Source: Clostridia bacterium (GTDB taxonomy: Bacteria; Bacillota; Clostridia; Oscillospirales; CAG-272). From it: a DNA stretch of 64,000 bases. A program made the position numbers and the translations under genes. The notes below the pieces were generated by a model. The model was not told the DNA's origin, did not search any database, and was given only the letters and a program-made list of their open reading frames with translations. Below, piece after piece: positions 1,127-58,556 of this stretch. Numbering within the stretch: the stretch's first letter is position 1; each line of letters starts with the position of its first letter. Location: NCBI GenBank assembly GCA_017613355.1, contig JAGAEA010000022.1, positions 6,209 through 70,208 on the forward strand, read 5' to 3'.

Positions 1127-1944
1127 TGCGAAACGGATACGAAGTTTGGGACGCGCACTGCCACATTTACCCCGAAAAGATCGCGGAGCGCGCCGTGGCG
1201 GGGACCGACGCTTTCTACGGAACCGCCGCCGCCTGCCGAGGTACGGTGCGCGACCTGATCGACCGCGGGACTGCCGCGGGGATCGACCGCTTTGTGGTGC
1301 AGTCGGTTGCGACCACGCCGAAGCAGGTACGGAGCATCAATGAGTTTATCGCCGCGGCGGTTGCCGAAGGCGAGGGACGGCTGACAGGGCTCGGAACCAT
1401 CCATCCCGCTTCCGAGAACATGGAAGGAGACATCCGCCATTTGGTGGAATTGGGTCTGCGCGGGATCAAAATTCACCCCGACATTCAGAAATACCGCATC
1501 GACGACCCGTTGTTCTTCCCCGCTTTCGAATTGGCGCAGTCGCTCGATCTGCCCATTCTGATCCACACGGGCGACTACCGCTACGACTATTCCAACCCCA
1601 ACCGTCTCCTTCCCGTCCTGCGCGCGTTTCCGCGCTTGCGGGTCATCGGGGCGCACTTCGGGGGATGGTCGATTTGGGAAGAAGCCGCAGAACAACTCGC
1701 GGGCATTCCCAACCTTTGGGTGGATTGCTCGTCCACCATGCCGTTCATGCCCGCCGGCGAGGTGGCGGCGCGGGTCCCCGCGCTGATCCGACGCTACGGA
1801 GCCGACCGCGTCCTGTTTGGGAGCGACGCGCCCATGTGGGATCCCGCCGCCGAGCTCGACGCTTTCCTTGCGCTTCCCGACCTGACCGACGACGATCGCC
1901 GCTTGATCCTCTCCGAGAACGCGAAGGGCGTTTATGGGGGATAA
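1126..1944 (+). CDS. Amidohydrolase family (metal-dependent TIM-barrel) protein
   Basis: DAHCH, GIKIHP, ILIHTG, AHFGG and LFGSD motifs; start overlaps the upstream stop (TAATG). Confidence 0.85.
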   Translation: MRNGYEVWDAHCHIYPEKIAERAVAGTDAFYGTAAACRGTVRDLIDRGTAAGIDRFVVQSVATTPKQVRSINEFIAAAVAEGEGRLTGLGTIHPASENMEGDIRHLVELGLRGIKIHPDIQKYRIDDPLFFPAFELAQSLDLPILIHTGDYRYDYSNPNRLLPVLRAFPRLRVIGAHFGGWSIWEEAAEQLAGIPNLWVDCSSTMPFMPAGEVAARVPALIRRYGADRVLFGSDAPMWDPAAELDAFLALPDLTDDDRRLILSENAKGVYGG

Positions 1945-1953
1945 AGAAAAGGT

Positions 1954-2001
1954 CGCGAGGGGAAGGGAAACTTTTTGCAAGAAGTTTCCCTTCCCCTCGC
2001 G
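1954..2001. repeat. REP-like long palindrome
   Basis: cgcgaggggaagggaaacttttt-gc-aagaagtttcccttcccctcgcg, near-perfect 23-bp arms just after the stop codon. Confidence 0.7.
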
Positions 2002-2047
2002 CTCCCTTTCCTTTCAAAAACTCTCATAAAGGGAAACTAACAAAGTA

Positions 2048-2085
2048 TTTTCCACCCCGCCAAATTTTTGGCGGGGTGGTTTTTC
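2048..2085 (+). repeat. Terminator-like repeat, copy 1 (variant loop)
   Basis: ccaccccgccaaatttttggcggggtgg followed by ttttt; related to the copies at 2846 and 4403. Confidence 0.85.
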
Positions 2086-2095
2086 GTTTGCCAGA

Positions 2096-2292
2096 CTTGA
2101 CATTACAGGCGCGGTTGTGGTAAAATATAGGTACGATGCTTGGGGGAATGTGCCAGATGATTCCACAACTAACCATGAATGGGGACACAATCATATTCAA
2201 AAATATGGGAAAGAACCGCAGATATGTTGGGAGGAGTTGATAGAGAAAACTATGAGCCATTTTGGAATAAAGAAAATTTTAAATTTTGGTAA
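2096..2292 (+). pseudogene. Mosaic Rhs core / toxin C-terminal remnant
   Basis: In frame: LDITGAVVVKYRYDAWGN (Rhs-associated core), then VPDDSTT and HEWGH; in a shifted frame YSKIWERTADMLGGVDR...stop at 2290-2292. Confidence 0.7.
2097..2126 (+). promoter_or_regulatory. sigmaA-like promoter embedded in the Rhs core remnant
   Basis: TTGACA-N18-TAAAAT with an extended -10 TG. Confidence 0.55.
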
Positions 2293-2752
2293 ATCATTTC
2301 TTGCTCTTTTGATTTTAATACTATGTTTTTTTTCTTCATGTAGGGGTTGGGGGTATTCTTTGCCATATGAGAAGGATAAATTGCAGGATGAATTAGTATC
2401 TATAAGTATTATTTCCGATTTGCATGTAGAGGATGTTGACGGTAGTAATCGCCTTGTTTACTCTACGATTTATGAGGTTTTTGACACGAGCGAGATTGAA
2501 AAAATTATAGATTCATTGGCTTCTGCTATATCTTCCGGAAGGATAAGAGGATGGAAAGGCGCTCCACTTCCTTATGGAACCGATGGCTTGATTTTAATTT
2601 ATCCAAATTATAAAATGATTATCTCAACAAGCAGAATTATGTATGTGGATGTAGAGAAAGAACAACCCGATTTGGAAAATCGTCAAATACTTGATTCTGA
2701 TGATGTTATCAAAACAATTATCAAAAAATACACTCAATTAGAAACGGAATAA
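2252..2752 (+). CDS. Putative lipoprotein, candidate immunity protein
   Basis: AT-rich ORF with basic N-terminus, hydrophobic stretch and FFSSC lipobox-like motif; overlaps the toxin-remnant stop. Start uncertain (the ORF track extends it to 2117). Confidence 0.6.
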   Translation: MSHFGIKKILNFGKSFLALLILILCFFSSCRGWGYSLPYEKDKLQDELVSISIISDLHVEDVDGSNRLVYSTIYEVFDTSEIEKIIDSLASAISSGRIRGWKGAPLPYGTDGLILIYPNYKMIISTSRIMYVDVEKEQPDLENRQILDSDDVIKTIIKKYTQLETE

Positions 2753-2845
2753 TTCACAGCATTTTCCTCGTCAATTTTGTTGCATGTCAATAAGTGTATG
2801 AACCAAATAATAGAAATGCACAATCAAAATAAAATCGTTTAGATT

Positions 2846-2883
2846 TGTTTTCCCACCCCGCCAATTCGGCGGGGTGGTTTTTC
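2846..2883 (+). repeat. Terminator-like 38-bp repeat, copy 2
   Basis: tgttttcccaccccgccaattcggcggggtggtttttc, identical to 4403-4440. Confidence 0.9.
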
Positions 2884-2895
2884 TGTGTGTCAAAC

Positions 2896-2924
2896 TTGAC
2901 AAATTTTTGAAAAGCTGTTATACT
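2896..2924 (+). promoter_or_regulatory. sigmaA promoter
   Basis: TTGACA-N17-TATACT with an extended TG. Confidence 0.75.
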
Positions 2925-2959
2925 GTATATGCATAATATTTATTGAATGGAGTAGCGTA

Positions 2960-3472
2960 ATGAAATTTGGCTTGAAACACAAACGATTGTCAACTATATG
3001 TGCCATTTTGGTATGTGTGATTTTTTTGTCCGTTGCCATTGGTCATTTGGTTTATGCTCATCGCAATATTGATAGAAGTCTTTATATTTTTCAAGATATT
3101 GATGAGTGCAGAAACTTGGCTTCTTATGAAAGCGATGCGGAAGTAAAGAGTTATGACTCTCCCGAACAAGATAAAAACTATAAGGGGCAACCGCTCATAT
3201 CTTTCGTGGGAATGAACTATAAATCCAAAACCATGAAATATAAACTATTTGCTTATGAGTTTGAAAATAGCGATCAGGCAAAACAGTATTTTTCAAAAAT
3301 AACTGGGAAAAATTATGACAATGCATTATATGTATCGAAATCGTCGGGCATGAGTTCTTATAGAATCGTAGTTGCGTTTGAAAACAGAGCATATTGCATA
3401 GAAACAAGCAATCGTTATATTAAACAAGTTGACACAATGCTTGCAAGTCAAATTTCAAATAAACTGAAGTGA
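2960..3472 (+). CDS. Membrane-anchored/secreted hypothetical protein, candidate immunity protein
   Basis: GGAG RBS, N-terminal hydrophobic helix, AT-rich; function inferred from context only. Confidence 0.6.
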   Translation: MKFGLKHKRLSTICAILVCVIFLSVAIGHLVYAHRNIDRSLYIFQDIDECRNLASYESDAEVKSYDSPEQDKNYKGQPLISFVGMNYKSKTMKYKLFAYEFENSDQAKQYFSKITGKNYDNALYVSKSSGMSSYRIVVAFENRAYCIETSNRYIKQVDTMLASQISNKLK

Positions 3473-3605
3473 CAACAAAAAAATAAGCAGATGGCGCATG
3501 AGTGGTCATTTTGTGTTTGATATGCTTCCATATTTTGTGTGGGGCAATTCGCCGGAAGATTCTACTACAATTATTGAACGAATTGGAATGGGGTGGTTAT
3601 ATTAA
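3471..3605 (+). pseudogene. Orphan toxin C-terminal fragment
   Basis: Frame reads ...SRWRMSGHFVFDMLPYFVWGNSPEDSTTIIERIGMGWLY-stop; WGNSPEDSTT matches WGNVPDDSTT at ~2141-2170 in 8 of 10 residues. Confidence 0.55.
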
Positions 3606-4398
3606 AATCCAAAAACGCAAATTAAAAAGAATAATCGCATTGTCTATACTTTTTATTGTTGTATTTGGAATTATACTGCAATTCATGAGATATTTTATGG
3701 CAAACAAATTGGTTAATGCTATTGAAAAGAACGATACGAAAAAAGTAGAATCTCTTTTGAAAAGCGGGGTAAATCCCAATGTCGGTACTTTGCCCGATTA
3801 TGGAATTCACAGGGTATTTCGCATTATGACGGAAACCAGTCCTCAATATCCGTTAGCAGAAGCCTGTTGGCAAGGGAATTATGAAATTGTCAAGTTGCTG
3901 ATTGACCATGGGGCAAAGGTCGATTTCTCCAAGAAAGAGGTATGGTCTCCTTTATGGAATGCTATCCAATATTATCAGCCCGATACAATTCCGATAGTGA
4001 AGTTGCTATTGGAAAATGGCGCCGATATTTACCATGAGGAAGGCGGTGAGTTCCCCGCTCAAATTGCATCGCAAATGAGACCGAAAAAATATGATCCGGA
4101 AAGAAAGAATGGCACTGTATTTGAAGATGGCTATGACGAGGAAACTGCACAAGGCATCACAGAAGTAGTAAAGTTGCTGATAGGAGATAATGATATTAAC
4201 GAACCTGCGTATTGTGGCAGGACAATGTTAATGTGGGCAGCTTTTTATGAAAACATTCCTCTTACAGAATATTTGCTTTCAATTGGTGCAAATAAAAGCA
4301 TTAAAAATCATTATGATGGTAAAACCGCTTATGACTATGCGATTGACAATGACAACCAGAAACTTGCCGAACTGTTGAAGCCGTCAGCCGAAATCTGA
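3502..4398 (+). CDS. Membrane-anchored ankyrin-repeat protein (true start probably near 3601)
   Basis: Ankyrin repeats PLAEACWQGNYEIVKLLIDHGAKVD, PIVKLLLENGAD, GRTMLMWAA, GKTAYDYA; N-terminal TM helix. Confidence 0.8.
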   Translation: MVILCLICFHILCGAIRRKILLQLLNELEWGGYIKIQKRKLKRIIALSILFIVVFGIILQFMRYFMANKLVNAIEKNDTKKVESLLKSGVNPNVGTLPDYGIHRVFRIMTETSPQYPLAEACWQGNYEIVKLLIDHGAKVDFSKKEVWSPLWNAIQYYQPDTIPIVKLLLENGADIYHEEGGEFPAQIASQMRPKKYDPERKNGTVFEDGYDEETAQGITEVVKLLIGDNDINEPAYCGRTMLMWAAFYENIPLTEYLLSIGANKSIKNHYDGKTAYDYAIDNDNQKLAELLKPSAEI

Positions 4399-4402
4399 TC
4401 AA

Positions 4403-4440
4403 TGTTTTCCCACCCCGCCAATTCGGCGGGGTGGTTTTTC
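4403..4440 (+). repeat. Terminator-like 38-bp repeat, copy 3
   Basis: Identical to 2846-2883; marks the return to high-GC sequence. Confidence 0.9.
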
Positions 4441-4471
4441 GCCACACGCTCTGCAATTTTCGGGAAAGCTC

Positions 4472-4500
4472 TTGACAAACCGCGAAAAATAGGGTATGAT
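4472..4500 (+). promoter_or_regulatory. sigmaA promoter
   Basis: TTGACA-N17-TATGAT. Confidence 0.7.
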
Positions 4501-4549
4501 ACAAAGGTCCTACACCGTTTTCTTTGAAGTGAGGTTTCGGAATACCGTC

Positions 4550-5701
4550 ATGGAAGAACCGCAAGCATCCGTCAAGCCTTCCCGCGCCGCCGTTCGTTCG
4601 GCGATTCTGCGCTTTCCGCAGAGAAACCCCGTTCTCTGCATTTCGTTCGTTCTCGCGGTCGTCACGTCCTTCATCATCCCGCCCGACGCCGCCTACCGCT
4701 CCTATATCGACCTGAAAACCGTCTCCTGCCTGTTCTGCGTGCTCGCGGTCGTCTGTGCGCTCAAAAATATCCGCTTTTTCTCCCGCCTCGCCGAGGGTCT
4801 TGTGGTGCTCACGGGGAATTTGCGCCTTGCCACGGTCGCGCTTGTCTGCGTCACTTTCATCGGCTCCATGCTCATTGCCAACGACATGGCTCTCCTGACC
4901 TTCCTTCCGCTCGGCTATTTCGTCCTCGCTTCCACGGGGACAGAACGCTACATGGCGCCCGTTTTCATTCTGCAAAACATTGCCGCCAACCTCGGCGGAA
5001 TGCTCACCCCATTCGGCAACCCGCAAAACCTCTATCTCTATTCCCATTTCAACATCCCCGACGGCGAATTTCTGCGCATCATGTTCCCGCCGTTCCTGCT
5101 CTCCATCGCTCTGATCCTCGCTTGCTGTTTCCTGTTGCCGCGCTCACCGATCTCGCTGCAACGCTCCGAAAAATCGCCCTTGCCCCTACCGCGAACGCTT
5201 TTGTATCTTGCCCTGTTCGCGCTTGCGATCGTCATGGTGTTCCGCGTCATTCCCTATTGGATCGGGCTTTGCGTCATTCCCGCGGTTCTGCTCCTTGCCG
5301 ACCGTCGGGCGCTCGGGCAGGTGGACTACGGTCTGCTTTTCACCTTCGTCTGCTTCTTCGTTTTCGCGGGAAACCTCTCGCGCGTCGAGCCCGTCCGCGA
5401 GCTTCTCGGCAACCTGCTCGGCAAAAATCCGCTCGTGGTGAGCGCGCTGTCCTGTCAGGTCATCAGCAACGTGCCCTCCGCCATCCTGCTCTCCCGCTTC
5501 ACTTCCGACTACCGCAGTCTCCTGCTCGGCGTGAACATCGGCGGCACGGGAACGCTCATCGCCTCGCTCGCCAGCCTCATCACCTTCCGCGAATACGTCC
5601 GACACAACCCGAACCGCAAACGGTACTACCTCGGGGTTTTCTCGGCGTTCAATTTCTCGTTTCTTGCCGTTCTGCTCGTTTTTTCTTCCCTCGTCGGTTA
5701 A
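4550..5701 (+). CDS. CitMHS/ArsB/NhaD-type (ion transporter superfamily) permease
   Basis: Multi-TM protein with SMLIANDMALLTFLP, AANLGGMLTPFGNPQN, SNVPSA and GVNIGGTGTLIASLASLI motifs. Confidence 0.8.
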   Translation: MEEPQASVKPSRAAVRSAILRFPQRNPVLCISFVLAVVTSFIIPPDAAYRSYIDLKTVSCLFCVLAVVCALKNIRFFSRLAEGLVVLTGNLRLATVALVCVTFIGSMLIANDMALLTFLPLGYFVLASTGTERYMAPVFILQNIAANLGGMLTPFGNPQNLYLYSHFNIPDGEFLRIMFPPFLLSIALILACCFLLPRSPISLQRSEKSPLPLPRTLLYLALFALAIVMVFRVIPYWIGLCVIPAVLLLADRRALGQVDYGLLFTFVCFFVFAGNLSRVEPVRELLGNLLGKNPLVVSALSCQVISNVPSAILLSRFTSDYRSLLLGVNIGGTGTLIASLASLITFREYVRHNPNRKRYYLGVFSAFNFSFLAVLLVFSSLVG

Positions 5702-5768
5702 AACCCGTCATGTTTTTGACCGACGTTGGATATACTATCCCCGAAAGTCCTCGGAAAGGAGGTCTCCC

Positions 5769-6305
5769 GTGTTTTTCCAAAATCATTTACAGCTCGGTCG
5801 TGCGCTCGCTGCCGAATCGCGGGAATTAAACGCGCATTTTCTTCGCCGCGAACTCTTCCTGCTCGGTAACGTCCTGCCCGATTTTTTGTTTTATACCTAT
5901 CTGCGCGGCTACGGAAAAAGCCGCCGTTGGACGGGTCACAGTTTGCCCCATTCCGCGCCCGCCATCGAAAAAAATCTGAAAAAGCGTCTTTCGGTGGGTC
6001 TTCGCTCCTGCCACGACGCCTACCGCCTCGGCATTCTGATCCACTATCTTTCGGATTCCTTCACCTATCCGCACACCGAACGCTTCACGGGTCGCCGATC
6101 CGAACACACCCGCTACGAACACAAACTCCTCAAAATTTTTCCGCGTTTTCTGCATCTCGTCAAGGAAACGCCGCCCGCGCAATCGGCGGATTTTCTCGCC
6201 GAAGCGCGTCGCGCTTACCTTTCGCTCCCCCCTTCCCCCGAAACCGACGCGGAATGGATCGTTCGCGTCTGCTCGGCGATTTTCTTCGCGGTGGGGGAGG
6301 TCTGA
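5769..6305 (+). CDS. Zinc-dependent phospholipase C family protein
   Basis: N-terminal His, GNVLPD, GHS, HYLSDSFTYPH and HTRYE motifs; AAAGGAGGT RBS before GTG. Confidence 0.7.
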   Translation: MFFQNHLQLGRALAAESRELNAHFLRRELFLLGNVLPDFLFYTYLRGYGKSRRWTGHSLPHSAPAIEKNLKKRLSVGLRSCHDAYRLGILIHYLSDSFTYPHTERFTGRRSEHTRYEHKLLKIFPRFLHLVKETPPAQSADFLAEARRAYLSLPPSPETDAEWIVRVCSAIFFAVGEV

Positions 6306-6359
6306 ATTCATAAAAATACCGATTTTCAAATGTTTTTAGACCAAAAACAAAGATTTCTA

Positions 6360-6388
6360 TTGACACGGAAAGCGAAATCTGCTATAAT
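6360..6388 (+). promoter_or_regulatory. sigmaA promoter of the glm operon
   Basis: TTGACA-N17-TATAAT, perfect consensus with TG extension. Confidence 0.85.
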
Positions 6389-6491
6389 GATAAATGTTGA
6401 AGGTTCAACCGCACGGGTTTGGAAACTTTTCCAAGCCCGTATGTTATGCAATGGATGCTTTCATAAAAAACCGAGGGAGATTTTATCCGCT

Positions 6492-7868
6492 ATGGGAAAA
6501 TATTTCGGGACCGACGGCTTTCGCGGGGAAGCGGGCGTTACGCTCACTTCCGAACACGCCTACAAGATCGGCAGATTTCTGGGATGGTACTATTCGGAGA
6601 GCGGACGGCATCGCGTCCGCATTGTGATCGGCAAGGACACGCGCCGTTCAAGCTATATGTTCGAGTACGCGATCGTGGCGGGCTTGACCGCGTCGGGCGC
6701 CGACGCCTATATGCTCCACGTCACCACCACGCCGAGCGTTTCCTACGTTGTGGCGGGGGATGAATTCGACTGCGGCATCATGATTTCGGCAAGCCACAAC
6801 CCCTTCACCGACAACGGCATCAAGCTGGTCAACCGTCGCGGCGAAAAAATGGACGACGCGACCATTGAAAAAATCGAACTCTATCTGGACGGTCGTCTCG
6901 ATGCCCTCGGCGTCACCGCGCCCGACCTTCCCTTCGCCAAAGGCGAAGAGCTGGGGGAGATCGTGGACTACGCGGCGGGCAGAAACCGCTATATCGGTTA
7001 TCTCATCTCGCTCTCGCGCTATTCCTTCAAACCCTACCGCATCGGTCTCGACTGCGCCAACGGAAGCGCCTGGATGATCGCCAAAAGCGTGTTTGAAGCG
7101 CTCGGCGCGAAAGTTTCGCTCATCAACGCCTCGCCGGACGGTCTCAATATCAACCGCGGCGCGGGCTCCACGCATATCGGCGCGCTTTGCCGCCACGTGC
7201 AGGAAAACAATCTCGACGTCGGGTTCGCCTTTGACGGTGACGCCGACCGCTGTATCGCCGTAGACGAACGCGGAAACGTCGTCAACGGGGATCACATTCT
7301 TTATATCCTCGCCAACGTTCTCAAACAGAACGGCGAACTGACGAACAATACCGTGGTGACGACCATCATGTCCAATATGGGACTTTACCGCGCCTTGACC
7401 GACGCGGGGATCGACTACGCGCAAACCACGGTGGGCGACCGCTACGTGTGGGAAAACATGGCGGAAACGGGCAACTGCCTCGGCGGGGAGCAATCGGGAC
7501 ATATCATCATGAGCAAGTATGCCACCACGGGGGACGGCATTCTGACCGCCATTAAGATCATGGAAGCGGTCATTTCTTCCAAGCTCCCGCTCTCCAAACT
7601 CGCCGAACCCGTGAAAATGTACCCGCAGGTACTCAAAAACGTCCGCGTGGCGGATAAAGCCGCCGTGCGGAACAACGCCGCCGTGAAAGCGGCGGTCGAA
7701 AAAGCAAGTTCCGAGCTGAACGGAAACGGTCGCGTCCTGCTCCGCGAGAGCGGCACCGAACCCGTTGTCCGCGTCATGGCGGAAGCCGACACCGAGGCGC
7801 TTTGCGAGCGCGTGGTGAACGGTGTGGTCGCCGTCATCCGCTCGGAAGGGCTCGCGGAGGATCGATGA
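6492..7868 (+). CDS. glmM: Phosphoglucosamine mutase
   Basis: KYFGTDGFRG, ISASHNP phosphoserine motif, FDGDADR, GGEQSGH, RESGTEP. Confidence 0.95.
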   Translation: MGKYFGTDGFRGEAGVTLTSEHAYKIGRFLGWYYSESGRHRVRIVIGKDTRRSSYMFEYAIVAGLTASGADAYMLHVTTTPSVSYVVAGDEFDCGIMISASHNPFTDNGIKLVNRRGEKMDDATIEKIELYLDGRLDALGVTAPDLPFAKGEELGEIVDYAAGRNRYIGYLISLSRYSFKPYRIGLDCANGSAWMIAKSVFEALGAKVSLINASPDGLNINRGAGSTHIGALCRHVQENNLDVGFAFDGDADRCIAVDERGNVVNGDHILYILANVLKQNGELTNNTVVTTIMSNMGLYRALTDAGIDYAQTTVGDRYVWENMAETGNCLGGEQSGHIIMSKYATTGDGILTAIKIMEAVISSKLPLSKLAEPVKMYPQVLKNVRVADKAAVRNNAAVKAAVEKASSELNGNGRVLLRESGTEPVVRVMAEADTEALCERVVNGVVAVIRSEGLAEDR

Positions 7869-8555
7869 ATGCAAGGTTTTGAAGAACAGTTGCGCGTGAC
7901 CGCGCTTTACCGCTATCCCGAACACTCGATCGCCTATGACTACCTCGCGTCCTTCACCTATCCGTGGGAAGCCCTGGACGGTCTTGCCGATTTCATTCGC
8001 GGTCTGGGCGCAACGCTCTCCCCCGATGAATACGACCGCCCCGCCGACGACGTTTGGATCGCCAAAACGGCGAAAATCGCACCGACGGCATATCTCGGCG
8101 GACCTTTGATCGTTTGCGACGGCGCCGAAGTCCGCCATTGCGCGTTCATTCGCGGAAGCGCGATCGTGGGTGCGGGCGCCGTGGTCGGCAATTCCACCGA
8201 ACTGAAAAACTGTATTCTTTTCGACCGTGTGCAGGTTCCGCACTTCAACTACGTAGGCGACGCCGTCCTCGGCTACCGCTCGCACATGGGCGCGGGTACG
8301 GTGACTTCCAACGTCAAGAGCGACAAAACACCCGTCGTCATTCGTTGTGAAACGGAAGCTATGGCAACGGGGCGCAAGAAATGCGGAGCGATGCTCGGCG
8401 ACTTCGTGGAAGTGGGCTGCAACAGCGTGCTCAACCCGGGAACGGTCATCGGCGCCAACAGCACGGTGTATCCTCTTTCCTCGGTGCGCGGGTTCGTCCC
8501 CGAACGCCACATTTTCAAATCCCGCGAGGAGATCATTCTCAAACGGGAAGACTGA
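7869..8555 (+). CDS. Hexapeptide-repeat acyltransferase (stand-alone GlmU C-terminal-like domain)
   Basis: Left-handed beta-helix repeats, PHFNYVGD, VGCNSVLNPGT; lies between glmM and glmS. Confidence 0.75.
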   Translation: MQGFEEQLRVTALYRYPEHSIAYDYLASFTYPWEALDGLADFIRGLGATLSPDEYDRPADDVWIAKTAKIAPTAYLGGPLIVCDGAEVRHCAFIRGSAIVGAGAVVGNSTELKNCILFDRVQVPHFNYVGDAVLGYRSHMGAGTVTSNVKSDKTPVVIRCETEAMATGRKKCGAMLGDFVEVGCNSVLNPGTVIGANSTVYPLSSVRGFVPERHIFKSREEIILKRED

Positions 8556-15773: not shown

Positions 15774-16133
15774 ATGGAGGAAAGTCAACTTCGTACCCTA
15801 TCAAAAACTTTTGCAAGGCATATTATCCTTACCTGTCGGGATATGAAAAAGAGAAAAATCGAAAGTGCATTGGTTGACCAGCTTTTAAGAAGCGGCACCT
15901 CTGTTGGTGCAAATATACATGAGGCACAACACGCACAAGGAATAAAAGATTTTATCTCAAAATTTGAAATATCGCTGAAAGAATGTAATGAGAGTGAATA
16001 TTGGTTAGAGCTTCTATTTGAAACGGAAAGTATCAACGGAAAAACGTTTGCAACCTTGAAAAGCGAATGTGATTCCATCCGAAAAATGCTTATATCATCT
16101 GTTGTAACCTTAAAGCGAAAAACAGCCACTTAA
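15774..16133 (+). CDS. Four-helix-bundle protein (23S rRNA IVS / bAvd-like)
   Basis: QLLRSGTSVGANIHEA...DFISKFEISLKECNESEYWLELL signature; AT-rich; preceded by imperfect heptamer repeats (ttcataa cttataa ctcatag ttcatag). Confidence 0.9.
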   Translation: MEESQLRTLSKTFARHIILTCRDMKKRKIESALVDQLLRSGTSVGANIHEAQHAQGIKDFISKFEISLKECNESEYWLELLFETESINGKTFATLKSECDSIRKMLISSVVTLKRKTAT

Positions 16134-39165: not shown

Positions 39166-40173
39166 TCAGGAATTGAAGATCAGTTCGTCAAAAGAACAGC
39201 CGCTCGCGCTTTTCACGATCCCGTATGCGGTCAGTAAAACCAACCGATAGAGCCGTTCACGGTCAATGCCGACACAGTTCGGGATCGATTTGAGCAGTTT
39301 TTCGGCAGACGGATGAAACGAACCGGACGTCAGAAAGATGCCGCGCGATCCGTTTTTGACGTTGACCGCACCCCAGAACTCGCGGATCTCTTTTTCGGTG
39401 GTTTGCGTGTTTTCCCTGCATTTTGTCTGGATCATCAGATGTTCCACAAAGCCGAGATCGTCAACGGTCACCATTTCAATATCAACGCCGCCGTCCATAC
39501 TCCCGCCGGTCACCTCGCAGGAAGAAACCGCGCGTCCCGTCATTTGATAATACTTTTCCAATAGGTTGGCGCAATAACGTTCAAAGAATGCGCCGCCTTT
39601 GAGGTGGATCCGCTCAAAGAACGCCTTTTGAAATTCCGCCTCTGGTCGGAACTCCTTCCAGACCGCGACCGAATCGGCTTCTTTCGGGAGAGAATACAGA
39701 TCCCCTTCCAGTTTCACTTTCTGTTCGGAGAGCATTTGGGTCAACAGTTGTCCGGCGATCCCTTTCAGTTCGTTATCATCCTTCAACGACTTTGTTTGAA
39801 CCGTTCCGAAGTGATTTTGCAACGCGGAATACAAGTCCTTCTTTTTCATCGGATTTCGTCCGAGTAAACGAAGGATCTCTTTTTTATATTGTTGCGTTCC
39901 CACAACAATCAATTTTTCTTTGGTCAGAAAATATTCGTCGTTTTGCTTGGCAACGTCGCCGGACGCGACCAGATCATTGAGCGCCGTTCCGATGTAACTG
40001 CGAATGAGACCATTTTTCGAGTTTGGACTTTTATTTGCCAGTTCCTTTTCGGAAAGGCCGTAAAGTTTTGCTGTCCCATCCAAGATCCGGGCGCGTGTGG
40101 CTTTCCCTTCCTGATCGATAAACGCGGTCAACTTCTCCACGACCGACTGTTTTTCCTTCTCGCTGATTTTCAT
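39166..40173 (-). CDS. Mrr-like restriction endonuclease domain protein
   Basis: FERYCANLL...DGGVDI...IQTKC...EIREFWGAV...GIFLTSGSF catalytic pattern; N-terminal helical/wHTH-like segments. Confidence 0.8.
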   Translation of the reverse strand: MKISEKEKQSVVEKLTAFIDQEGKATRARILDGTAKLYGLSEKELANKSPNSKNGLIRSYIGTALNDLVASGDVAKQNDEYFLTKEKLIVVGTQQYKKEILRLLGRNPMKKKDLYSALQNHFGTVQTKSLKDDNELKGIAGQLLTQMLSEQKVKLEGDLYSLPKEADSVAVWKEFRPEAEFQKAFFERIHLKGGAFFERYCANLLEKYYQMTGRAVSSCEVTGGSMDGGVDIEMVTVDDLGFVEHLMIQTKCRENTQTTEKEIREFWGAVNVKNGSRGIFLTSGSFHPSAEKLLKSIPNCVGIDRERLYRLVLLTAYGIVKSASGCSFDELIFNS

Positions 40174-44256: not shown

Positions 44257-45282
44257 TTATTCTTTGCTATATCCGTAAGGATTTTTAACTTGCCAATTCC
44301 AAGAGTCCCTAGCGCAGTCCTCGTATGTATATTCAGCTTTCCAGCCTAAAATCTTGTTGGCTTTTTCAACCGATGCAAAAGATAGAGGAACATCACCAGG
44401 TCTGATATCCGTAATTTGGTAAGGAATCTTCTTCCCCGACACTTTTTCGAAAGCAGCGACCAATTGCAAAACGGTCGTTCCCTTTCCTGTGCCCAAATTG
44501 AAGACATCAAATTTCACATCTGTGTTATTCAAATAATTTAGCGCGGCAAGATGGCCTTTTGCGAGATCAACAACGTGAATATAATCCCTTAATCCGGTTC
44601 CATCGACAGTATCGTATGAATTGCCATAGACCTTCAAATAAGGAAGTTGCCCAAGCAAAACTTTCGTGATGTAAGGCACCAAGTTATTAGGAATGGATTG
44701 TCCATCATCCTCGCCAATCAAACCAGATGGATGTGCGCCAACCAGGTTGAAGTATCTAAGCGCAATAAACTTGAAATCCTTTCTTTGGCTAGCGAAATCC
44801 TTCAAAAGCAATTCAATAAGATATTTGCTCAAGCCATAAGGAGAGCAAACCTTACCAACCAAATCTATTTCATAATCAGGCACTTCTTCTGGGGTACCAT
44901 AAACCGTAGCACTGCTGGAAAACACTAATTTATAAACATTATGCTTTTCCATAGCGTTCAGAAGATTAAACGTGGAAATGATGTTTGTATTCAAGTATTT
45001 GCCAGGTTCGAGTATAGATTCAGCACCGCTCTTTAAACCTGCGAAATGGATGATTGAATCTATTTTATTCTCACTGAAAACTCTTTCAACAAGTTCAACA
45101 TCCAACAAGTCACCCTTATAAAACTTTGGCGTTTTGCCTGTGATTGCAGTAATTCTTTCAAGAACCTCAATCCTTGAATTGCACAGATTGTCAACGATGA
45201 CGACATCCTCGCCAACATTTAATAATTCTACCACAGTGTGGGAACCGATAAACCCAGTTCCGCCTGTAACTAATACGCTCAT
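44257..45282 (-). CDS. galE: UDP-glucose 4-epimerase
   Basis: VTGGTGFIGSHT, IHFAGLK, FSSSATVYG, YGLSK, LRYFN, RDYIHVVDLA. Confidence 0.93.
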   Translation of the reverse strand: MSVLVTGGTGFIGSHTVVELLNVGEDVVIVDNLCNSRIEVLERITAITGKTPKFYKGDLLDVELVERVFSENKIDSIIHFAGLKSGAESILEPGKYLNTNIISTFNLLNAMEKHNVYKLVFSSSATVYGTPEEVPDYEIDLVGKVCSPYGLSKYLIELLLKDFASQRKDFKFIALRYFNLVGAHPSGLIGEDDGQSIPNNLVPYITKVLLGQLPYLKVYGNSYDTVDGTGLRDYIHVVDLAKGHLAALNYLNNTDVKFDVFNLGTGKGTTVLQLVAAFEKVSGKKIPYQITDIRPGDVPLSFASVEKANKILGWKAEYTYEDCARDSWNWQVKNPYGYSKE

Positions 45283-45362
45283 TTTATATTCCTCCTGGTA
45301 TCACAAAACATTATTTGTTAAAACATCGACGATTGTTGGTTTTAAGCAACCATCAAATCTAA

Positions 45363-46172
45363 TTATCTATCAATATATAAATTCCCAGAGCCGCCCGTAA
45401 CATAAAATGTCTCTCCAACAACCAAATCAGAAATACTTGAGCATAATAAAACCGCCCAATTCGCAATTTCTTGTGCGGTGGCCATTCTTTTAGAAGGATT
45501 CTCCTCGCAAAAAATGTCATTATTATCTCTTCCGAGCATTTTTGTAGCAACTGGTCCAGGGCCTAATCCGTTCACAACAATTCCATAAGGAATTAATCTT
45601 TGTGCAGAACCTTTAATCAAACTCTCTACAGCATTCTTCGATATTTCATATGGTGTAACTCCATTTTTTAGCGCACTAGCAGAACTTATATTCAATATGT
45701 GGCCTTTTATTGCATGAGATTTCATTAAATTCCCTACACATTGATTAACGAAAAACATCCCTTTGAGGTTCACAGAGATTACGTCATCGAAATCCTTTTC
45801 GGTAATTTCAAAAAAATTAGATGGGCCGTGTATGCCCGCTGCATATACAACTATATCGATATTATAATCATGCGATGAATAAATGTGATCTAGTGAATGA
45901 AGCATAGATGTGATATGGTTGCAATCAATCTCATAAAACTCACAATTGTTCAATTGGGCATAAGCCTTTTCCAATTTTTCCTTATTCGTCCCAGTAATCA
46001 TTATATTACAATCCGATTTTTGAAAAGCTTTTGCAATTTCAAATCCAATGCCACCACATCCACCAATTATTAATGCTCGATGCCCAGAAAGAAGATTAGT
46101 CATTAATACCGGAGTATTAATTGCTCTAAGCTCGACTTTTTTGAATCTTTTTAAAAACGACTTAATGCTCAT
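45363..46172 (-). CDS. SDR family oxidoreductase
   Basis: GGCGGIG, NISS, YEISK, VNGLGPG. Confidence 0.88.
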   Translation of the reverse strand: MSIKSFLKRFKKVELRAINTPVLMTNLLSGHRALIIGGCGGIGFEIAKAFQKSDCNIMITGTNKEKLEKAYAQLNNCEFYEIDCNHITSMLHSLDHIYSSHDYNIDIVVYAAGIHGPSNFFEITEKDFDDVISVNLKGMFFVNQCVGNLMKSHAIKGHILNISSASALKNGVTPYEISKNAVESLIKGSAQRLIPYGIVVNGLGPGPVATKMLGRDNNDIFCEENPSKRMATAQEIANWAVLLCSSISDLVVGETFYVTGGSGNLYIDR

Positions 46173-47920
46173 TTTTTAAACCCCTTCAAAAAAGATAGTA
46201 TTTTTTTAATTCTTTCTTTTTGTTTAGAACTAAATAGTTTAGAGAGCGAGTTCACAACAGGATTACCAACTTGATTTCTATTTTGATTGTAGAATTTATT
46301 AGTGTTGTTTGCTTCGAATTCCATATCGGTAAAGACTTCTAAAAACATCGGTTTGTCACTTTCGTGTGAAAACTTTTCTATAGCGTTATCAAACTCTTCT
46401 TTGCAAGTGGCAAAATAATAATCATAGCCCAATGAAACAACCCACCCAGCCGCAATCTTTGAATGCTTTGCTGAAATATAATCATTTATTTCAGGAATTT
46501 TCTCTTTGCCAACAAAAAAATGGAATTCCCCACCGCCTCCATTATTAATTAATATAATTCTCACATTCTTTGAAATGTTCCTTAAACCGGCGGCATTCAT
46601 ATCGTAAAAAAAGCTCAAATCACCAATCAACAAATACGCCAATTCGTTTGTTGATGCCGCCTGGCCAGCAAAAGTCGAAAGGCATCCATCTATTCCTAAA
46701 GCGCCAACGTTGCTATATGCCATAACGTTATTATTTAAGTTGAAGAACTGCATGACTCTCGTACTATTTAGAATAGCAGTATGCAAAACAGAATTCTCAG
46801 GAACGATTTGCGATAGTCCTTTTGCAACATAAAGATTTGAAAACTCAAATTCTGGCAGAATAAACTTGTCTATTTGCGATTTCCAGAGGTTGTAATAAAG
46901 CATATCGTTTTTGTCGTTCTTTTCTAGGGACATTAGACCATCGAAGAATTCAGCAACGCTGCACTCATAAATGCGCGTTAAACATTTATATGCATCACGA
47001 ACATTTCCATTTTCCGATATTAGCCAGTTACAAATACTTTTATACCCATTTCTCAAAAATGGTTTTAATCCATACGCTGCTAAGTTGTTGCCAATAGAAA
47101 TCACTAGATCCGGAAGAAGGTTTGAAGACAAACGCGTTTCAGTAAGTGGATAGGTATTTATGCATCCTTCACAATTTATATTTGACAAAGTCTCGATTGA
47201 AAAAAAGCATTTATATCTGTTAAAAAACTTTTCAAAATTAGATATCATCTTTTTGTCAAAGTTAACATTTTGACCAACAACAACCATAATTCTTTTATAA
47301 CCAACTAAGTTTTCATGAATTGAGTTAAAGTCAATTTTTGAGAACGAAATTAGATCAATTTTTCTTTCAGTAGGCAATTTTTCGCAATCGTAAATATCGT
47401 ATCTTTGTGTAATTGGAACATTTATGTGACACGGGCCACTACCGTGATGATCGAGTTCAAGAAGGGCCTCGTTAATAAGTCTATTACATAACCACTCATC
47501 CTCTTCATCTTTTATAACAGGCAGAGATACAGATTTCTTAACAACGCCATCAAACACTTTTGTTTGTTCAATTTTTTGTGTTTCTAATTGATTTTGATAA
47601 TATGGATTTTTATCGCATGTTATAGCAAGAACGGGCCTACTTTGGTACCATGCCTCTGTAATACCTGGCAAATAATTACAAACAGCAGTGCCAGATGTAC
47701 AAATGCATGCAACCACACATTGTTTCTGCAGCGAAACACCTAGAGCGAAGTATGCAGCGCTTCTTTCATCAACTACTGAATAACAGTTAAAAAAGGGATC
47801 TTTTTCTATAGAATGAATTAAGGGAATATCACTTCCACCTGGAGAAATGACTATTTCTTTAATGTCATTTTGTTTCAACAAAGATACCAAAATTTGAATG
47901 CTCCTAATATTGCTATACAT
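46169..47920 (-). CDS. MenD-like thiamine diphosphate-dependent enzyme
   Basis: ISPGGSD, VDERSAAYFALG, CTSGTA, GIDG, GDLSFFYD...INNGGG ThDP motif. Confidence 0.85.
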   Translation of the reverse strand: MYSNIRSIQILVSLLKQNDIKEIVISPGGSDIPLIHSIEKDPFFNCYSVVDERSAAYFALGVSLQKQCVVACICTSGTAVCNYLPGITEAWYQSRPVLAITCDKNPYYQNQLETQKIEQTKVFDGVVKKSVSLPVIKDEEDEWLCNRLINEALLELDHHGSGPCHINVPITQRYDIYDCEKLPTERKIDLISFSKIDFNSIHENLVGYKRIMVVVGQNVNFDKKMISNFEKFFNRYKCFFSIETLSNINCEGCINTYPLTETRLSSNLLPDLVISIGNNLAAYGLKPFLRNGYKSICNWLISENGNVRDAYKCLTRIYECSVAEFFDGLMSLEKNDKNDMLYYNLWKSQIDKFILPEFEFSNLYVAKGLSQIVPENSVLHTAILNSTRVMQFFNLNNNVMAYSNVGALGIDGCLSTFAGQAASTNELAYLLIGDLSFFYDMNAAGLRNISKNVRIILINNGGGGEFHFFVGKEKIPEINDYISAKHSKIAAGWVVSLGYDYYFATCKEEFDNAIEKFSHESDKPMFLEVFTDMEFEANNTNKFYNQNRNQVGNPVVNSLSKLFSSKQKERIKKILSFLKGFKK

Positions 47921-47921
47921 A

Positions 47922-49457
47922 CTAATTCTTCTCCTTTTTCCTAAAGAACCTCTTGAATATATTTACAAAGAACAAATAATCATCGTTTTTTATGTTAAAT
48001 AAAGTAAATAAAACGATAAAAACTGTCAAAATTATCACTGCTTTGATGCAAAAATATAACAAACCATTTGGGATAAAACTAATTGCTAATAAAGAAAGAG
48101 AAAAACCTAAGACGGAAATCATGAAATGTTTTAATTGTTTGAACCAATATAGGCATACTTTTTTATTAAAGCACTTTTTGAATAGTATTATGGGCTCGAT
48201 TATGAAGCTTGTCATTAAGAGACTAACGGCAGTAGCCAAAAGAATACCAAAAGTACCCCATAATATTCCTAATACGATGGATAAAAATAGGTTAAGGAGC
48301 GCTCTAAATATAATCAGCAATTGAACTTCTTTAAATAAGCCGTTAGCTTCTCTATACATCCATATTGGCGTTATAGCGGTTGTAATATAGAAATTAATTG
48401 AAATCATCCAAACCGTATAATTATCTAAAACATAAACACTCCCTAGCCAATAAGAAATAAGATTGTTGAACAATAATATAAATCCTGTTCCACCAACGGA
48501 GCCTATAAAATGGTAAAAGAGCAGAAAACTGTTGAACAATTTGTATTGTTTTTCAGCATCCCCTTTAGCATTTAAATTACCTATACCAGATACTAATGAC
48601 ACAGTAATAATAACAAGAAACGAGTTTACGGCGCTAATTATTGATAAATAATTCGAGTACAACCCCACTGCGGCTGTGCTCACAAGTACAGATATTAGAA
48701 TATTATCTGTATTATTAATTGCAACCGTACATATTTTGTAGATAAAAGTGGCTGATATCCTTTTATAAATTGGTTTTTTATCAAATGAAACGGTTTCTTG
48801 CTCTATCAGAACATCTTTATGTAATTTGTTACAAGCAAAATTAAGTAATAGATTTCCAGCAATAGTAACAATGACGATAGAATAAAGATAGAATAAATAG
48901 TTTCTCGTCAGTGTCAAAACAACAATACAAACGATTTGCAAAGCCAATTTTGTTATCAGTGCTATTATTCTAGACACCCTTTGTTGCTGATAGGCTGACA
49001 GCAAAGCGTTCTTGTGAGCAACAAAATAACTAAGGACAGTGTTCAACACAAAAATAAGAAAATAATACTGTAATTCCCCTATGGCAATATTGCTATTAAC
49101 TAAATATTTTAAAAAAGGCAGTAATGCAACGCCAATCAGAAAAATTATAATGGCTAAAAATATATATATTTTCTTGAAAAATTTTAGAAGGGAATGAATT
49201 AATGGCTTATTATCATCGGCAACCGGTTTATATAACGAAAATAACACCGCGGTATCTAGCCCCAGTTCCGCTAGAGATAATACGGTTAAAAGATTACCAA
49301 ATAGACCATCAATGCCAAGATAGTCTATGCTAAGATACCTTAGAAAAATCTTCCTACCGATAAATGTTGTAATCAGAATTCCTATTTGGCAAAAATATCC
49401 GATCACAATATTTAAGACAGCATTCTTAGAACGCGAATCATTTTTATTACTTAACAT
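47922..49457 (-). CDS. Wzx-type oligosaccharide flippase
   Basis: About 12-14 hydrophobic segments; LSLAELG, NTDNILIS, VGLYSNY. Confidence 0.85.
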   Translation of the reverse strand: MLSNKNDSRSKNAVLNIVIGYFCQIGILITTFIGRKIFLRYLSIDYLGIDGLFGNLLTVLSLAELGLDTAVLFSLYKPVADDNKPLIHSLLKFFKKIYIFLAIIIFLIGVALLPFLKYLVNSNIAIGELQYYFLIFVLNTVLSYFVAHKNALLSAYQQQRVSRIIALITKLALQIVCIVVLTLTRNYLFYLYSIVIVTIAGNLLLNFACNKLHKDVLIEQETVSFDKKPIYKRISATFIYKICTVAINNTDNILISVLVSTAAVGLYSNYLSIISAVNSFLVIITVSLVSGIGNLNAKGDAEKQYKLFNSFLLFYHFIGSVGGTGFILLFNNLISYWLGSVYVLDNYTVWMISINFYITTAITPIWMYREANGLFKEVQLLIIFRALLNLFLSIVLGILWGTFGILLATAVSLLMTSFIIEPIILFKKCFNKKVCLYWFKQLKHFMISVLGFSLSLLAISFIPNGLLYFCIKAVIILTVFIVLFTLFNIKNDDYLFFVNIFKRFFRKKEKN

Positions 49458-50565
49458 TGTTAGCTAAACCTTTATTAAAATAATCCGCTAATTTGTCGTA
49501 ATATTTTTTTTCAAAATAATTATCAATAGCGCAACTGTAGCTGTTGTAATAAAGTTTATGAATTAACTCAAAAGCAGAGTTTAAATCTTCTGCAACAAAC
49601 ACATATTCATCTAGCACGCCTTTAAACCAGTCAGCGCCAGTAATAACTTTATGATCTGTTGTTTTTAATATAACGACCGGGGTATTTGCAGCCAAAGCGA
49701 AGATTGTACCGTGGTAACGATCGGTAACAATAAGTTTATAATTGGAATAATTTGAAATTTCATCTAGAATATGCTGTTCGGCATTGAAATTAATACGAGC
49801 TATTCTTTTAGTAGTATCAGTTCTTTCAATTCTATCAGTGATGCTTTTGCATTTAGAGATTAATAATTCGAGTTCGCTATCAGGATAGAATTTTTCTGTG
49901 TCATCTCTAAGGCAAAATAATATTCCTTCTCTTTTATTTGAAAACGTTAGGGTTCCAATAAGAGTAGTCACAATATCAGGAAACAACATAACATTAATAT
50001 CAGGAAACATTTCTAATGCAGTATGATAAGAAATACTATCTCTTGCTAAAAATAAGAGATTCTTATCGGCATTAAGAATTGAAGCAGTTAGCATTTTATT
50101 TTTTTCATTTTTAAAAAAAACGGTTTGTGGCATCATCAACTTTTTATTGTTGGGAAACTCCAAACAAATTGTTCTATGCATTAAATCAGCATACCCTCCT
50201 AAATCAGTTGTGGTATAACCACTTTGAAAAACAAAAAAATCATCATCTTTTATTAAATGTTTCAATTTTCTAATTATTGGAAACATAGTGTTAACGACAG
50301 CATTTGTTTCTATTTCAACGATTGGAATATTTATATAATGTTTTTTTAACCATTTTCTAATGCACACACCTTGAGCTTGGTCTCCTAAATTATTGTGTAC
50401 AGGAATGCCAAAATAAACTATTTTTTTTTCCTCGGAATCAATTCTCAAATGATTTAAATAATGCAAGGCTCTACAATATGTTTTAAAATTCCAATAAAGC
50501 TTTCTAATCCACAGTAACGGAAAGAAAAATTTTTTATTTTTTCTTATAAAATTTGATAAACTCAT
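49447..50565 (-). CDS. Polysaccharide pyruvyl transferase family protein
   Basis: NLGDQAQ, PQTV, ARD, PDIV, TDRYHG motifs. Confidence 0.8.
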   Translation of the reverse strand: MSLSNFIRKNKKFFFPLLWIRKLYWNFKTYCRALHYLNHLRIDSEEKKIVYFGIPVHNNLGDQAQGVCIRKWLKKHYINIPIVEIETNAVVNTMFPIIRKLKHLIKDDDFFVFQSGYTTTDLGGYADLMHRTICLEFPNNKKLMMPQTVFFKNEKNKMLTASILNADKNLLFLARDSISYHTALEMFPDINVMLFPDIVTTLIGTLTFSNKREGILFCLRDDTEKFYPDSELELLISKCKSITDRIERTDTTKRIARINFNAEQHILDEISNYSNYKLIVTDRYHGTIFALAANTPVVILKTTDHKVITGADWFKGVLDEYVFVAEDLNSAFELIHKLYYNSYSCAIDNYFEKKYYDKLADYFNKGLANNVK

Positions 50566-51742: not shown

Positions 51743-52013
51743 ATAATCTATAATTAATCATGGTGAATTTTATATTGCTAAACAAAAATCCACTTATTCC
51801 TTTCATATCCTTCTAAAGCCCTGCTAATGCCTTGCGCCTAAAGATAACAGTACATCTATTAGCAAATATACATAACAAAATATACAAGGTGCTATAGTTC
51901 CCTATATATTTTTTCTGCATATAAAATAAAAAGCTAATAGCCTTTTCTCCAAGGTTCTTATAAATAATATTTCAAAATAACCGTCTTCGACTCAAACCGA
52001 AAAAGTATTTCAT

Positions 52014-53123: not shown

Positions 53124-53430
53124 AGTTTTTCATTTCTCCTTTTTCTATCTTAAAACGAGCCTTCTAAATATATTAATATATTGAAGCTATGAGATGTTAG
53201 ATATTGACCATTGTTTAATAATTAATGTAATAGAGTGGATACATAAAAACGCCATAATGGATGATTAATAAAAAGAAAAAGGTAATACGGACTTAATTTT
53301 TAAACAATCAATGTAATGAGTATAAGAAATACATGACAATTATTTTACATATAAAAAAATACTTAGGACCGAGCCAAAAGAATAAGCAATTGTTAGCAAG
53401 CTTTCATAAGTGGATAATCACATTTGAACA

Positions 53431-58503: not shown

Positions 58504-58556
58504 TTGTTCAACTCCTTTTTAATAATTTAGCAAGCAACACAACACGTGAACAGCCA

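Follow-up and report, generated by a model that had tools for sequence, protein, structure and literature searches.

A strain-variable islet of candidate Rhs-linked immunity genes with a repeated terminator-like hairpin in an uncultured gut bacterium

We analysed a 64-kb window of DNA (the whole stretch of 64,000 nucleotides, contig C18:6209-70208) from the assembly of an uncultured Clostridia bacterium (1.37 Mb, 49 contigs, overall GC 0.527, estimated 76% complete) and describe in it an AT-rich island at 2031..4440 (+) that holds three small open reading frames (ORFs) and three copies of a GC-rich hairpin. We suggest, with a probability of roughly 0.6, that the island originated from Rhs toxin-immunity modules and is a strain-variable polyimmunity islet, that its hairpin terminates modules and that no dedicated recombinase is used. 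The islet begins with a defunct piece of Rhs core and a short leader, followed by three genes for predicted envelope-anchored proteins. In the genus, the ankyrin family of the third gene would be the cognate counterpart of a family of Rhs C-terminal toxins, and the islet genes would protect against toxins delivered by neighbours. An earlier note, made from the letters of this DNA alone, had proposed an orphan-immunity-like cassette array. This proposal proved largely right: the hairpin is restricted in its distribution, the interval is strain-variable, the ORF3 family is Rhs-linked and an Rhs relic is present.

Orphan immunity genes are thought to shape survival of contact-dependent killing in gut communities, and evidence on them comes mostly from Bacteroidales and Proteobacteria. 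The present locus appears to show the same orphan-immunity logic in an uncultured, probably spore-forming animal-gut bacterium, with a toxin-less islet of putatively Rhs-derived immunity candidates that differs between strains from several independent metagenome studies. How cassettes are moved, terminated or stabilised can be tested by way of the array-specific hairpins that recur where modules end.

The AT-rich islet and its repeated hairpin

GC content is 0.366 over 2031-4440 versus 0.597 in 1-2030 and 0.568 in 4441-8000, which agrees with the earlier description of AT-rich DNA between the hairpin copies and of high GC after the third. On the right, the island stops where the T-run of hairpin 3 stops. 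Its left border at 2030/2031 is common to two other strains, since metagenome contigs from sequencing runs X3 and X4 both leave the window sequence at 2030. Three co-directional ORFs lie within the island (2252-2752, 2960-3472 and 3502-4398). Each encodes one N-terminal hydrophobic segment, and ORF3 has an Ank_2 match, as expected from the three membrane-anchored or lipoprotein ORFs, one with ankyrin repeats, that had been noticed before. All three products are predicted to be anchored, with the bulk of each probably extracellular. Such a placement would fit envelope-acting toxins, and a toxin of this kind has been argued for a Listeria Rhs immunity protein (10.1101/2023.02.17.528482).

The pattern CCACCCCGCC-N3-9-GGCGGGGTGG occurs at 2052-2079, 2853-2877 and 4410-4434, always on the + strand and nowhere else in the window, and 0 of 100 shuffled sequences match it. 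Copies 2 and 3 agree at every position of a 38-nt stretch (2846-2883 = 4403-4440), and a 36-mer around them has exactly two matches in the window and none in the shuffles. The search thus confirmed the three hairpins starting at 2052, 2853 and 4410 and the 38-nt identity claimed for the last two. Copy 1 (2052..2084, +) consists of a 12-bp stem, a loop of 4 as folded and TTTTT; it is 68% alike in the 38-nt register, with the same stem and another loop. Copy 2 occupies 2846..2883 (+, stem 2853-2877), and copy 3, at 4403..4440 (+, stem 4410-4434), is the predicted terminator of ORF3 at the right end of the island. Each of the three resembles a terminator, having a stem of 10-12 pairs and then TTTTT. 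Their RNA folds reach -27.5, -23.4 and -23.6 kcal/mol for copies 1-3 (z -5.5 to -4.5), and none of 200 shuffles was as good. A GC-rich stem-loop with a U-tract directly after it, as in intrinsic terminators, is found in the three window copies and in a fourth copy on contig C44 of the same assembly. Copy 1 follows no gene in this strain, unlike the usual position of a terminator at a gene end. Judged by these features, the window hairpin is most likely a canonical intrinsic (Rho-independent) terminator. An Rfam scan of 1800-4700 returned nothing above any gathering score.

Promoter-like sites scoring 11/12 begin at 2097, 2896 and 4472. A TTGACA site therefore does follow each hairpin, as previously claimed, at 17, 18 and 37 nt after the stem ends and not at the 11-31 bp given for them. 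The first site, TTGACA-18-TAAAAT at 2097-2126 (TTGACA at 2097, TAAAAT at 2121), falls within the coding sequence of the Rhs relic, and its TTGACA and TAAAAT are conserved as coding sequence in G010, another genome of the genus; it may or may not fire. The second, TTGACA-17-TATACT with a TG (2896..2924, +), is kept in the X3 (2895-2929) and X4 (2791-2928) contigs and is probably the promoter of ORF2-ORF3. The third (4472..4500, +) lies outside the island in GC-rich host DNA and is the predicted promoter region of the host's own CitMHS-type transporter gene. Since the three promoter regions are not homologous, the 38-mer alone is the repeated module. Of the repeated terminator-plus-promoter unit envisaged in the earlier note, the terminator part stands, and the promoter part does not, site 1 being in the Rhs relic and site 3 being the host's.

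The genome holds four copies of the hairpin, all in the same orientation, each ending AT-rich ORFs and together confined to two AT-rich islands. A search of the 77 other genomes of the genus did not find the pattern (present in 1/78). Hence, the window hairpin is not a generic terminator scattered behind ordinary genes, in line with what had been supposed of the 38-mer. The bare palindrome occurs in at least 120 stretches of the genome contig collection. The 80 that were inspected have a single site each, mostly in unrelated high-GC genomes, and none of them has the loop or the flanks of the window hairpin; the bare stem is thus generic and uninformative. A 30-mer of the hairpin had 0 matches in the metagenome contig collection.

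The fourth copy ends a second toxin-less AT-rich islet of this genome (G000:C44:24700-26115, GC ~0.35), which lies between a host gene and CotJ-type genes and contains three small co-directional ORFs (for a 195-aa anchored protein, a tiny membrane protein and a 90-aa protein). Pfam gave no match above cut-off for the small ORFs of C44 or for those of contig C16. Window positions 2791-2882 correspond to C44:26026-26117 (92 nt, 91% identity), and this homology runs through hairpin 2. It begins 62 nt upstream of the hairpin, inside a gene tail: 2791..2842 (+) is the relic 3' end of a small gene, its last 14 codons and stop, and the gene is intact on C44.

This homology bears on whether the hairpins could be small mobile palindromic elements, similar to repetitive extragenic palindromes (REPs) or miniature inverted-repeat transposable elements (MITEs), that were independently inserted behind AT-rich island genes. 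The 38-mer is a discrete unit, as such an element would be, and the loops of array hairpins in genome G044 of the genus are flipped between copies. A different, near-perfect palindrome of 48 nt at 1954..2001 (no strand assigned), in host DNA outside the island and directly 3' of the amidohydrolase stop, resembles a bidirectional terminator with 20 pairs and a T-run on the - strand. The 26-nt cores of its family, 96% alike, have many matches across the genus genomes. By its sequence it is a REP-like repeated terminator, and repeated palindromes therefore do spread in this lineage. However, the window hairpin has only four copies, all pointing the same way and placed 3' of co-directional island genes, and no target duplication is visible. 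No Y1 transposase (REP/IS200-like) or REP-associated tyrosine transposase (RAYT)-type gene was matched above cut-off in the assembly. Moreover, since a gene tail is part of the 92-nt homology of one copy, that copy moved together with coding sequence. We consider independent insertion of mobile palindromes very improbable.

Links of the islet genes to Rhs arrays

ORF3 (3502..4398, +), whose true start is probably later than 3502, encodes a membrane-anchored ankyrin-repeat protein (Ank_2, E 3e-24). Homologues at E 1e-10 or better are present in 6/78 genus genomes, this one included. Within this genome, ORF3 aligns (29% over 291 aa, E 4e-22) with a membrane-anchored ankyrin gene directly behind an orphan Rhs C-terminal toxin region (Rhs-CT) on contig C38. 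A homologue in G044 lies directly 3' of a full-length Rhs gene of >2200 codons, and an anchored ankyrin homologue in G019 follows an Rhs gene. The three toxin C-termini paired with these ankyrin genes (C38, G044 and G019) form one family, 28-34% identical. The contig with the relative in G062 is too short to show its neighbours. Because homologues stand directly behind Rhs toxins in three arrays of the genus, the reading we favour for ORF3 is that of an orphan from an ankyrin immunity family linked to Rhs. The expectation that homologues of the islet ORFs would sit behind Rhs toxins was thus borne out for ORF3, and not for ORF2, with no toxin at two loci, or for ORF1, with no relative in 77 genomes.

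A second link is provided by the DNA directly after hairpin 1. An Rhs core relic of 18 codons, LDITGAVVVKYRYDAWGN, lies at 2096..2149 (+), and 16/18 of its residues are the same as those that begin an orphan Rhs of G010 (DNA 89% over 54 nt), where the fragment runs on as a normal Rhs core. The relic occupies the same YDAWGN position as in the Rhs cores of this genome. It is followed at 2150..2251 (+) by a conserved leader of 34 codons, in frame with both the relic and ORF1. The leader has no Pfam match and no toxin domain and is possibly a collapsed toxin C-terminus. No longer protein carrying it was found, and its sole match, P0005, is again a leader plus a lipoprotein. ORF1 itself (2252..2752, +; 166 aa) encodes a predicted lipoprotein or signal-anchored protein, which its position makes a candidate for an immunity role. 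Between P0005 and ORF1 the leader has 44/48 residues identical and the mature lipoprotein is ~32% identical, so that P0005 is an allele of ORF1 with a mosaic make-up, as is typical of genes that evolve fast and recombine. No homologue of ORF1 was found in the 77 other genus genomes.

ORF2 (2960..3472, +; 170 aa, N-terminally anchored) is a further candidate immunity protein, and like ORF1 it makes a weaker case than ORF3. Its family is very small, with homologues in only 4 clusters among 5.8 billion proteins. A homologue with 57% identity stands alone between folD-like and ribosomal protein S21-like genes, identified by reading the translations, in 2/2 metagenome loci of another organism (L158:623-1165; L159:1384-1926).

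The layout at the start of the islet recurs in the Rhs arrays of this genome. TIGR03696, the Rhs core family, has 3 matches above cut-off in the assembly, on C38 (2) and C16, and these contigs carry two orphan Rhs arrays (G000:C16:7650-10700 and G000:C38:1-3300; loci L018, L024, L017, L019). At 5/5 module junctions a relic ankyrin tail (...ELAELLKP, stop) is followed by a GC-rich hairpin and then by an Rhs core fragment, which is the order of window hairpin 1 and its Rhs relic. The hairpins of C38 and C16 form a second family, with arms CCCGACAA / TTGTCGGG and without a sense-strand U-tract; one stem position varies between A-T and G-C among its copies. The 5' arms of the two families look alike, but so short an alignment does not support a claim of shared ancestry. 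G044 (G044:C24:38329-41557, L156) has three copies of a hairpin of its own, all in its Rhs array, and G019 (G019:C62:2483-3625, L157) has three copies of another, two of them in its Rhs array. Two G044 copies have exactly reverse-complementary loops (TGTTGATT versus AATCAACA), hence the hairpin was flipped between junctions. Each array has one hairpin family at its module ends: two families in this genome and one each in G044 and G019. A shallow check of the literature on orphan immunity loci found no account of module-end hairpins, and we regard the array-specific hairpins of the Rhs arrays in this genus as a small new detail.

One could also view the three ORFs as ordinary acquired envelope proteins unrelated to immunity, with the Rhs relic as debris and the hairpins and promoters as normal punctuation. 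ORF1 and ORF2 are indeed without family assignment, ORF2 homologues lie between housekeeping genes, the nearest ORF3 relatives are solitary genes that have a terminator and a promoter to themselves, and a terminator followed by a promoter is the usual layout around single genes in the genus. Such a view accounts poorly for the more distant ORF3 relatives immediately 3' of Rhs toxins in three arrays, for an island that starts with an Rhs core relic and for identical hairpin copies confined to two AT-rich islands. Nor does it fit an ORF1 with a conserved leader and a strongly diverged body, or content that varies between strains. Together, these are the traits described for polyimmunity loci (PMC3482391). 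We therefore think it unlikely that the genes are unrelated to immunity.

Strain variation and possible routes of cassette exchange

Homologues of the amidohydrolase and of the transporter are on different contigs in those relatives where both were found. Since other species keep the flanking genes apart, conspecific strains were compared instead, using metagenome contigs of at least 90% likeness from runs X2, X3, X4 and X6. A 21.7-kb contig from X3 matches 1-2030 and 2957-7000 at ~98-99%. By the coordinates of its record, ~1269 other letters replace 2031-2894 in it, positions 2895-2929 are kept, and 293 letters lie between 2929 and 2957. A contig from X4 matches 883-2030; 632 other letters then replace 2031-2790, 2791-2928 is kept, and 26 other letters lead on to a piece like 2209-2242. 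Flank identity of the X3 and X4 bridging contigs is 94-99%. X4 contigs also go on after hairpin 3 into different DNA with another TTGACA, whereas in a further X4 contig hairpin 3 is followed by the transporter gene. Regions without a bridging contig (X4 over 3043-3276 in ORF2, X6 over 2107-2574 in ORF1) were not counted as absence. The first cassette thus differs between strains, the left border at 2030/2031 is fixed, and ORF2-ORF3 are common to X3. The earlier forecast of variable cassette content between the amidohydrolase and the transporter is met by X3 and X4, whereas the empty site forecast with it was seen neither at the flanking genes of relatives nor in strain contigs. No window-type hairpin was found in the transporter upstream regions of 11 loci. 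According to their records, the runs holding the locus are animal gut or bovine gut metagenomes (20 records from 13 studies, one of them the possible source).

We suggest that every module formerly lay at the end of a transcription unit in a related array and retained the terminator there, so that the hairpin would recur through shared descent of modules that recombined with their 3' ends attached. Homologous and homology-facilitated illegitimate recombination would then have stacked the modules, shortened them and carried them to other places. Exchange would proceed via short conserved pieces (Rhs relic, leader, gene tail plus hairpin, promoter piece) and via the flanking core genes. Terminator activity, promoter activity and this route are all predictions from sequence; the same route has been put forward for orphan Rhs modules and for the immunity arrays of Vibrio (PMC3967940, PMC5361080). 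Consistent with it, the homology borders between copies and strains are at 2030, 2209, 2791, 2895, 2929 and 2957, none of them within the stem-loop. Relic gene tails precede the hairpins both in the window and in the C38 and C16 arrays, as imprecise homology-guided exchange leaves such tails.

The earlier note had inferred that the hairpin doubles as an insertion site. More specifically, the hairpin could be a site-specific recombination site comparable to attC or to the intergenic repeats of rAID (recombinase-associated acquired interbacterial defence) clusters, at which promoter-gene-hairpin cassettes are inserted and excised by a recombinase encoded elsewhere. Several observations speak for this. 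Hairpins bracket the island, copy 1 near its left end and copy 3 at its right end, and the discrete 38-nt unit of copies 2 and 3 is attached to unrelated upstream genes. A joint in an X2 contig resumes at 2845, and X4 DNA after hairpin 3 enters another promoter-like module, as if a further cassette had been inserted. The left end varies and ORF2 and ORF3 are kept in X3, as in arrays that grow at one end, and other arrays of the genus have their own module-end hairpin family, some without a U-tract. Finally, the assembly contains four tyrosine and five large serine recombinase genes above curated cut-off.

However, a six-frame search of the whole assembly for integrases (PF00589), resolvases (PF00239) and Y1 transposases (PF01797) gave no match on C18 or beside the C16, C44 and C38 arrays, so that no recombinase adjoins any of the four arrays. 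This extends the previous remark that the window has no recombinase gene, and none was present among the 30 window ORFs scanned. The 4 PF00589 matches are all on other contigs. The nearest integrase, 4.6 kb from the C38 array, adjoins a type I methylase gene (HsdM), and we did not treat it as linked to the array. It belongs to a region downstream of the C38 Rhs array (G000:C38:3930-10400, L152) with a Fic-domain gene, the phage-type integrase, the type I methylase and a DUF4238 gene, a defence-type island not obviously tied to that array. Furthermore, perfect stems with a U5 tail are typical of terminators. Scattered borders and relic gene tails of 30-60 nt before the hairpins are unlike precise cassette borders. 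The genome has only four copies of the hairpin, and the metagenome contig collection has none of its 30-mer. Recombination at the hairpin is therefore less likely than a terminator recurring by shared descent, and we rate it as distinctly unlikely; this part of the earlier proposal is not upheld.

Several points weigh against the derivation of the islet from Rhs modules by homology-guided exchange. Copies 2 and 3 share only the hairpin and 7 nt on each side, and such a discrete portable 38-nt unit is also how a recombination site would look. The X2 joint leaves the window at 2292 and resumes at the very start of the 38-mer (2845), which fits a P0005-type allele. At 76% completeness of the assembly, an unlinked recombinase could be missing. 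The module-end hairpins in the C38, C16 and G044 arrays have no sense-strand U-tract, hence not all of these hairpins are simple terminators. In G001 and G058 the nearest ORF3 relatives (47-48% identity) are solitary genes flanked by housekeeping genes, and no toxin lies beside the ORF2 homologue on either metagenome contig (2.0-2.8 kb). ORF1 and ORF2 have no Pfam family at curated cut-off; an Atlas search returned one DUF family, at rank 13, for ORF1 and unnamed clusters only for ORF2. The locus has no toxin domain and no full-length Rhs gene, and C18 has no TIGR03696 match, so that derivation from Rhs modules rests on the 18-codon relic and the ORF3 family.

Taken across the genus, array-specific GC-rich palindromes could act both as functional punctuation and as crossover points of Rhs toxin-immunity cassettes. 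We regard this as a speculative and rather unlikely extension. If it were true, cassettes would be cut out of Rhs arrays and inserted anew at sites without a toxin, such as the present one, via DNA hairpins, cruciforms or a trans-acting recombinase, which would amount to an integron-like system of immunity gene capture in Gram-positive gut bacteria.

Genomic setting and comparison with known systems

The island is preceded by genes for an AMP-binding enzyme and an Amidohydro_2 protein and followed by the gene for the CitMHS-type transporter, and blastn found no match for it in plasmid or phage collections. A CotJB gene adjoins a Mn-catalase-type gene on another contig of the assembly, and because CotJB is present, the host is probably a spore-forming member of the Bacillota. 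Elsewhere in the window, a 15-kb AT-rich block at 44257-59318 (GC ~0.33, co-directional minus-strand genes) reads like a polysaccharide biosynthesis cluster, with epimerases and glycosyltransferase-like and flippase-like proteins, and was probably acquired horizontally. A Mrr-type restriction endonuclease gene is located at 39166-40173, within the polysaccharide region, and a gene of the '23S rRNA-intervening sequence protein' family at 15774-16133, in a small AT-rich patch.

Integrons have an intI integrase and attC sites, which are long imperfect palindromes with conserved core sites. The islet resembles integrons and clusters of attC sites lacking integron-integrases (CALINs) in having co-directional cassettes, each followed by a hairpin-forming repeat, and content that varies between strains. 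Unlike them, it has no intI, its stems are short and perfect (10-12 bp) with a U5 tail, in contrast to attC, its cassette borders are imprecise, and some of its cassettes appear to have their own promoter. Hence, the islet fails as a member of this class.

The rAID-1 clusters are defined in Bacteroidales by a 5' XerD-like recombinase, at least two co-directional downstream genes at GC ≤41% and conserved repetitive intergenic motifs (Ross et al., 10.1101/471110). Three short co-oriented genes with a presumed orphan-immunity role and a GC of 0.366, below 41%, recall such clusters. A repeated intergenic sequence of 38 nt is present as well. However, the repeat is a predicted terminator hairpin, and because there is no 5' XerD-like recombinase and the host is outside the Bacteroidales, the islet is not a rAID-1 cluster.

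Immunity arrays of the Vibrio cholerae type VI secretion system are explained by sequential effector displacement, in which old immunity genes are kept and toxins lost; homologous and homology-facilitated illegitimate recombination were proposed for them and their resemblance to an integron without integrase was noted (PMC5361080). Retention of immunity genes after toxin loss and the same recombination routes would be common to those arrays and the islet. The Vibrio arrays are at the 3' end of a secretion-system cluster, whereas the islet is detached from toxin or secretion genes.

In Salmonella and E. coli, orphan rhs-CT/rhsI modules lie downstream of main rhs genes (PMC3967940). Like these modules, the islet has at its 5' end a conserved Rhs core fragment without a start signal, followed by co-directional small genes, is AT-rich relative to the host and contains short homologous pieces that permit recombination. 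It differs in the absence of an upstream main rhs gene and of a toxin C-terminal domain, in a core relic of just 18 codons, in its position between housekeeping genes and in its host, a Gram-positive-type gut bacterium judging by CotJB. Without a main rhs gene and a toxin domain, it is not an orphan Rhs array proper.

The closest match is offered by toxin-less, strain-variable polyimmunity loci, a described class whose immunity families include Imm-ank with ankyrin repeats (Zhang et al. 2012, PMC3482391). With these the islet shares tandem co-directional unrelated ORFs without a toxin gene, an ankyrin member and strain-variable content, the last seen directly in the X3 and X4 contigs. It differs in having only three genes, in a shared hairpin that ends each unit and in that ORF1 and ORF2 belong to no described immunity family; as to the unrelated immunity families of such loci, only ORF3 is tied to one. 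Overall, we suggest that the islet adds a member to this known class, not a new mechanism.

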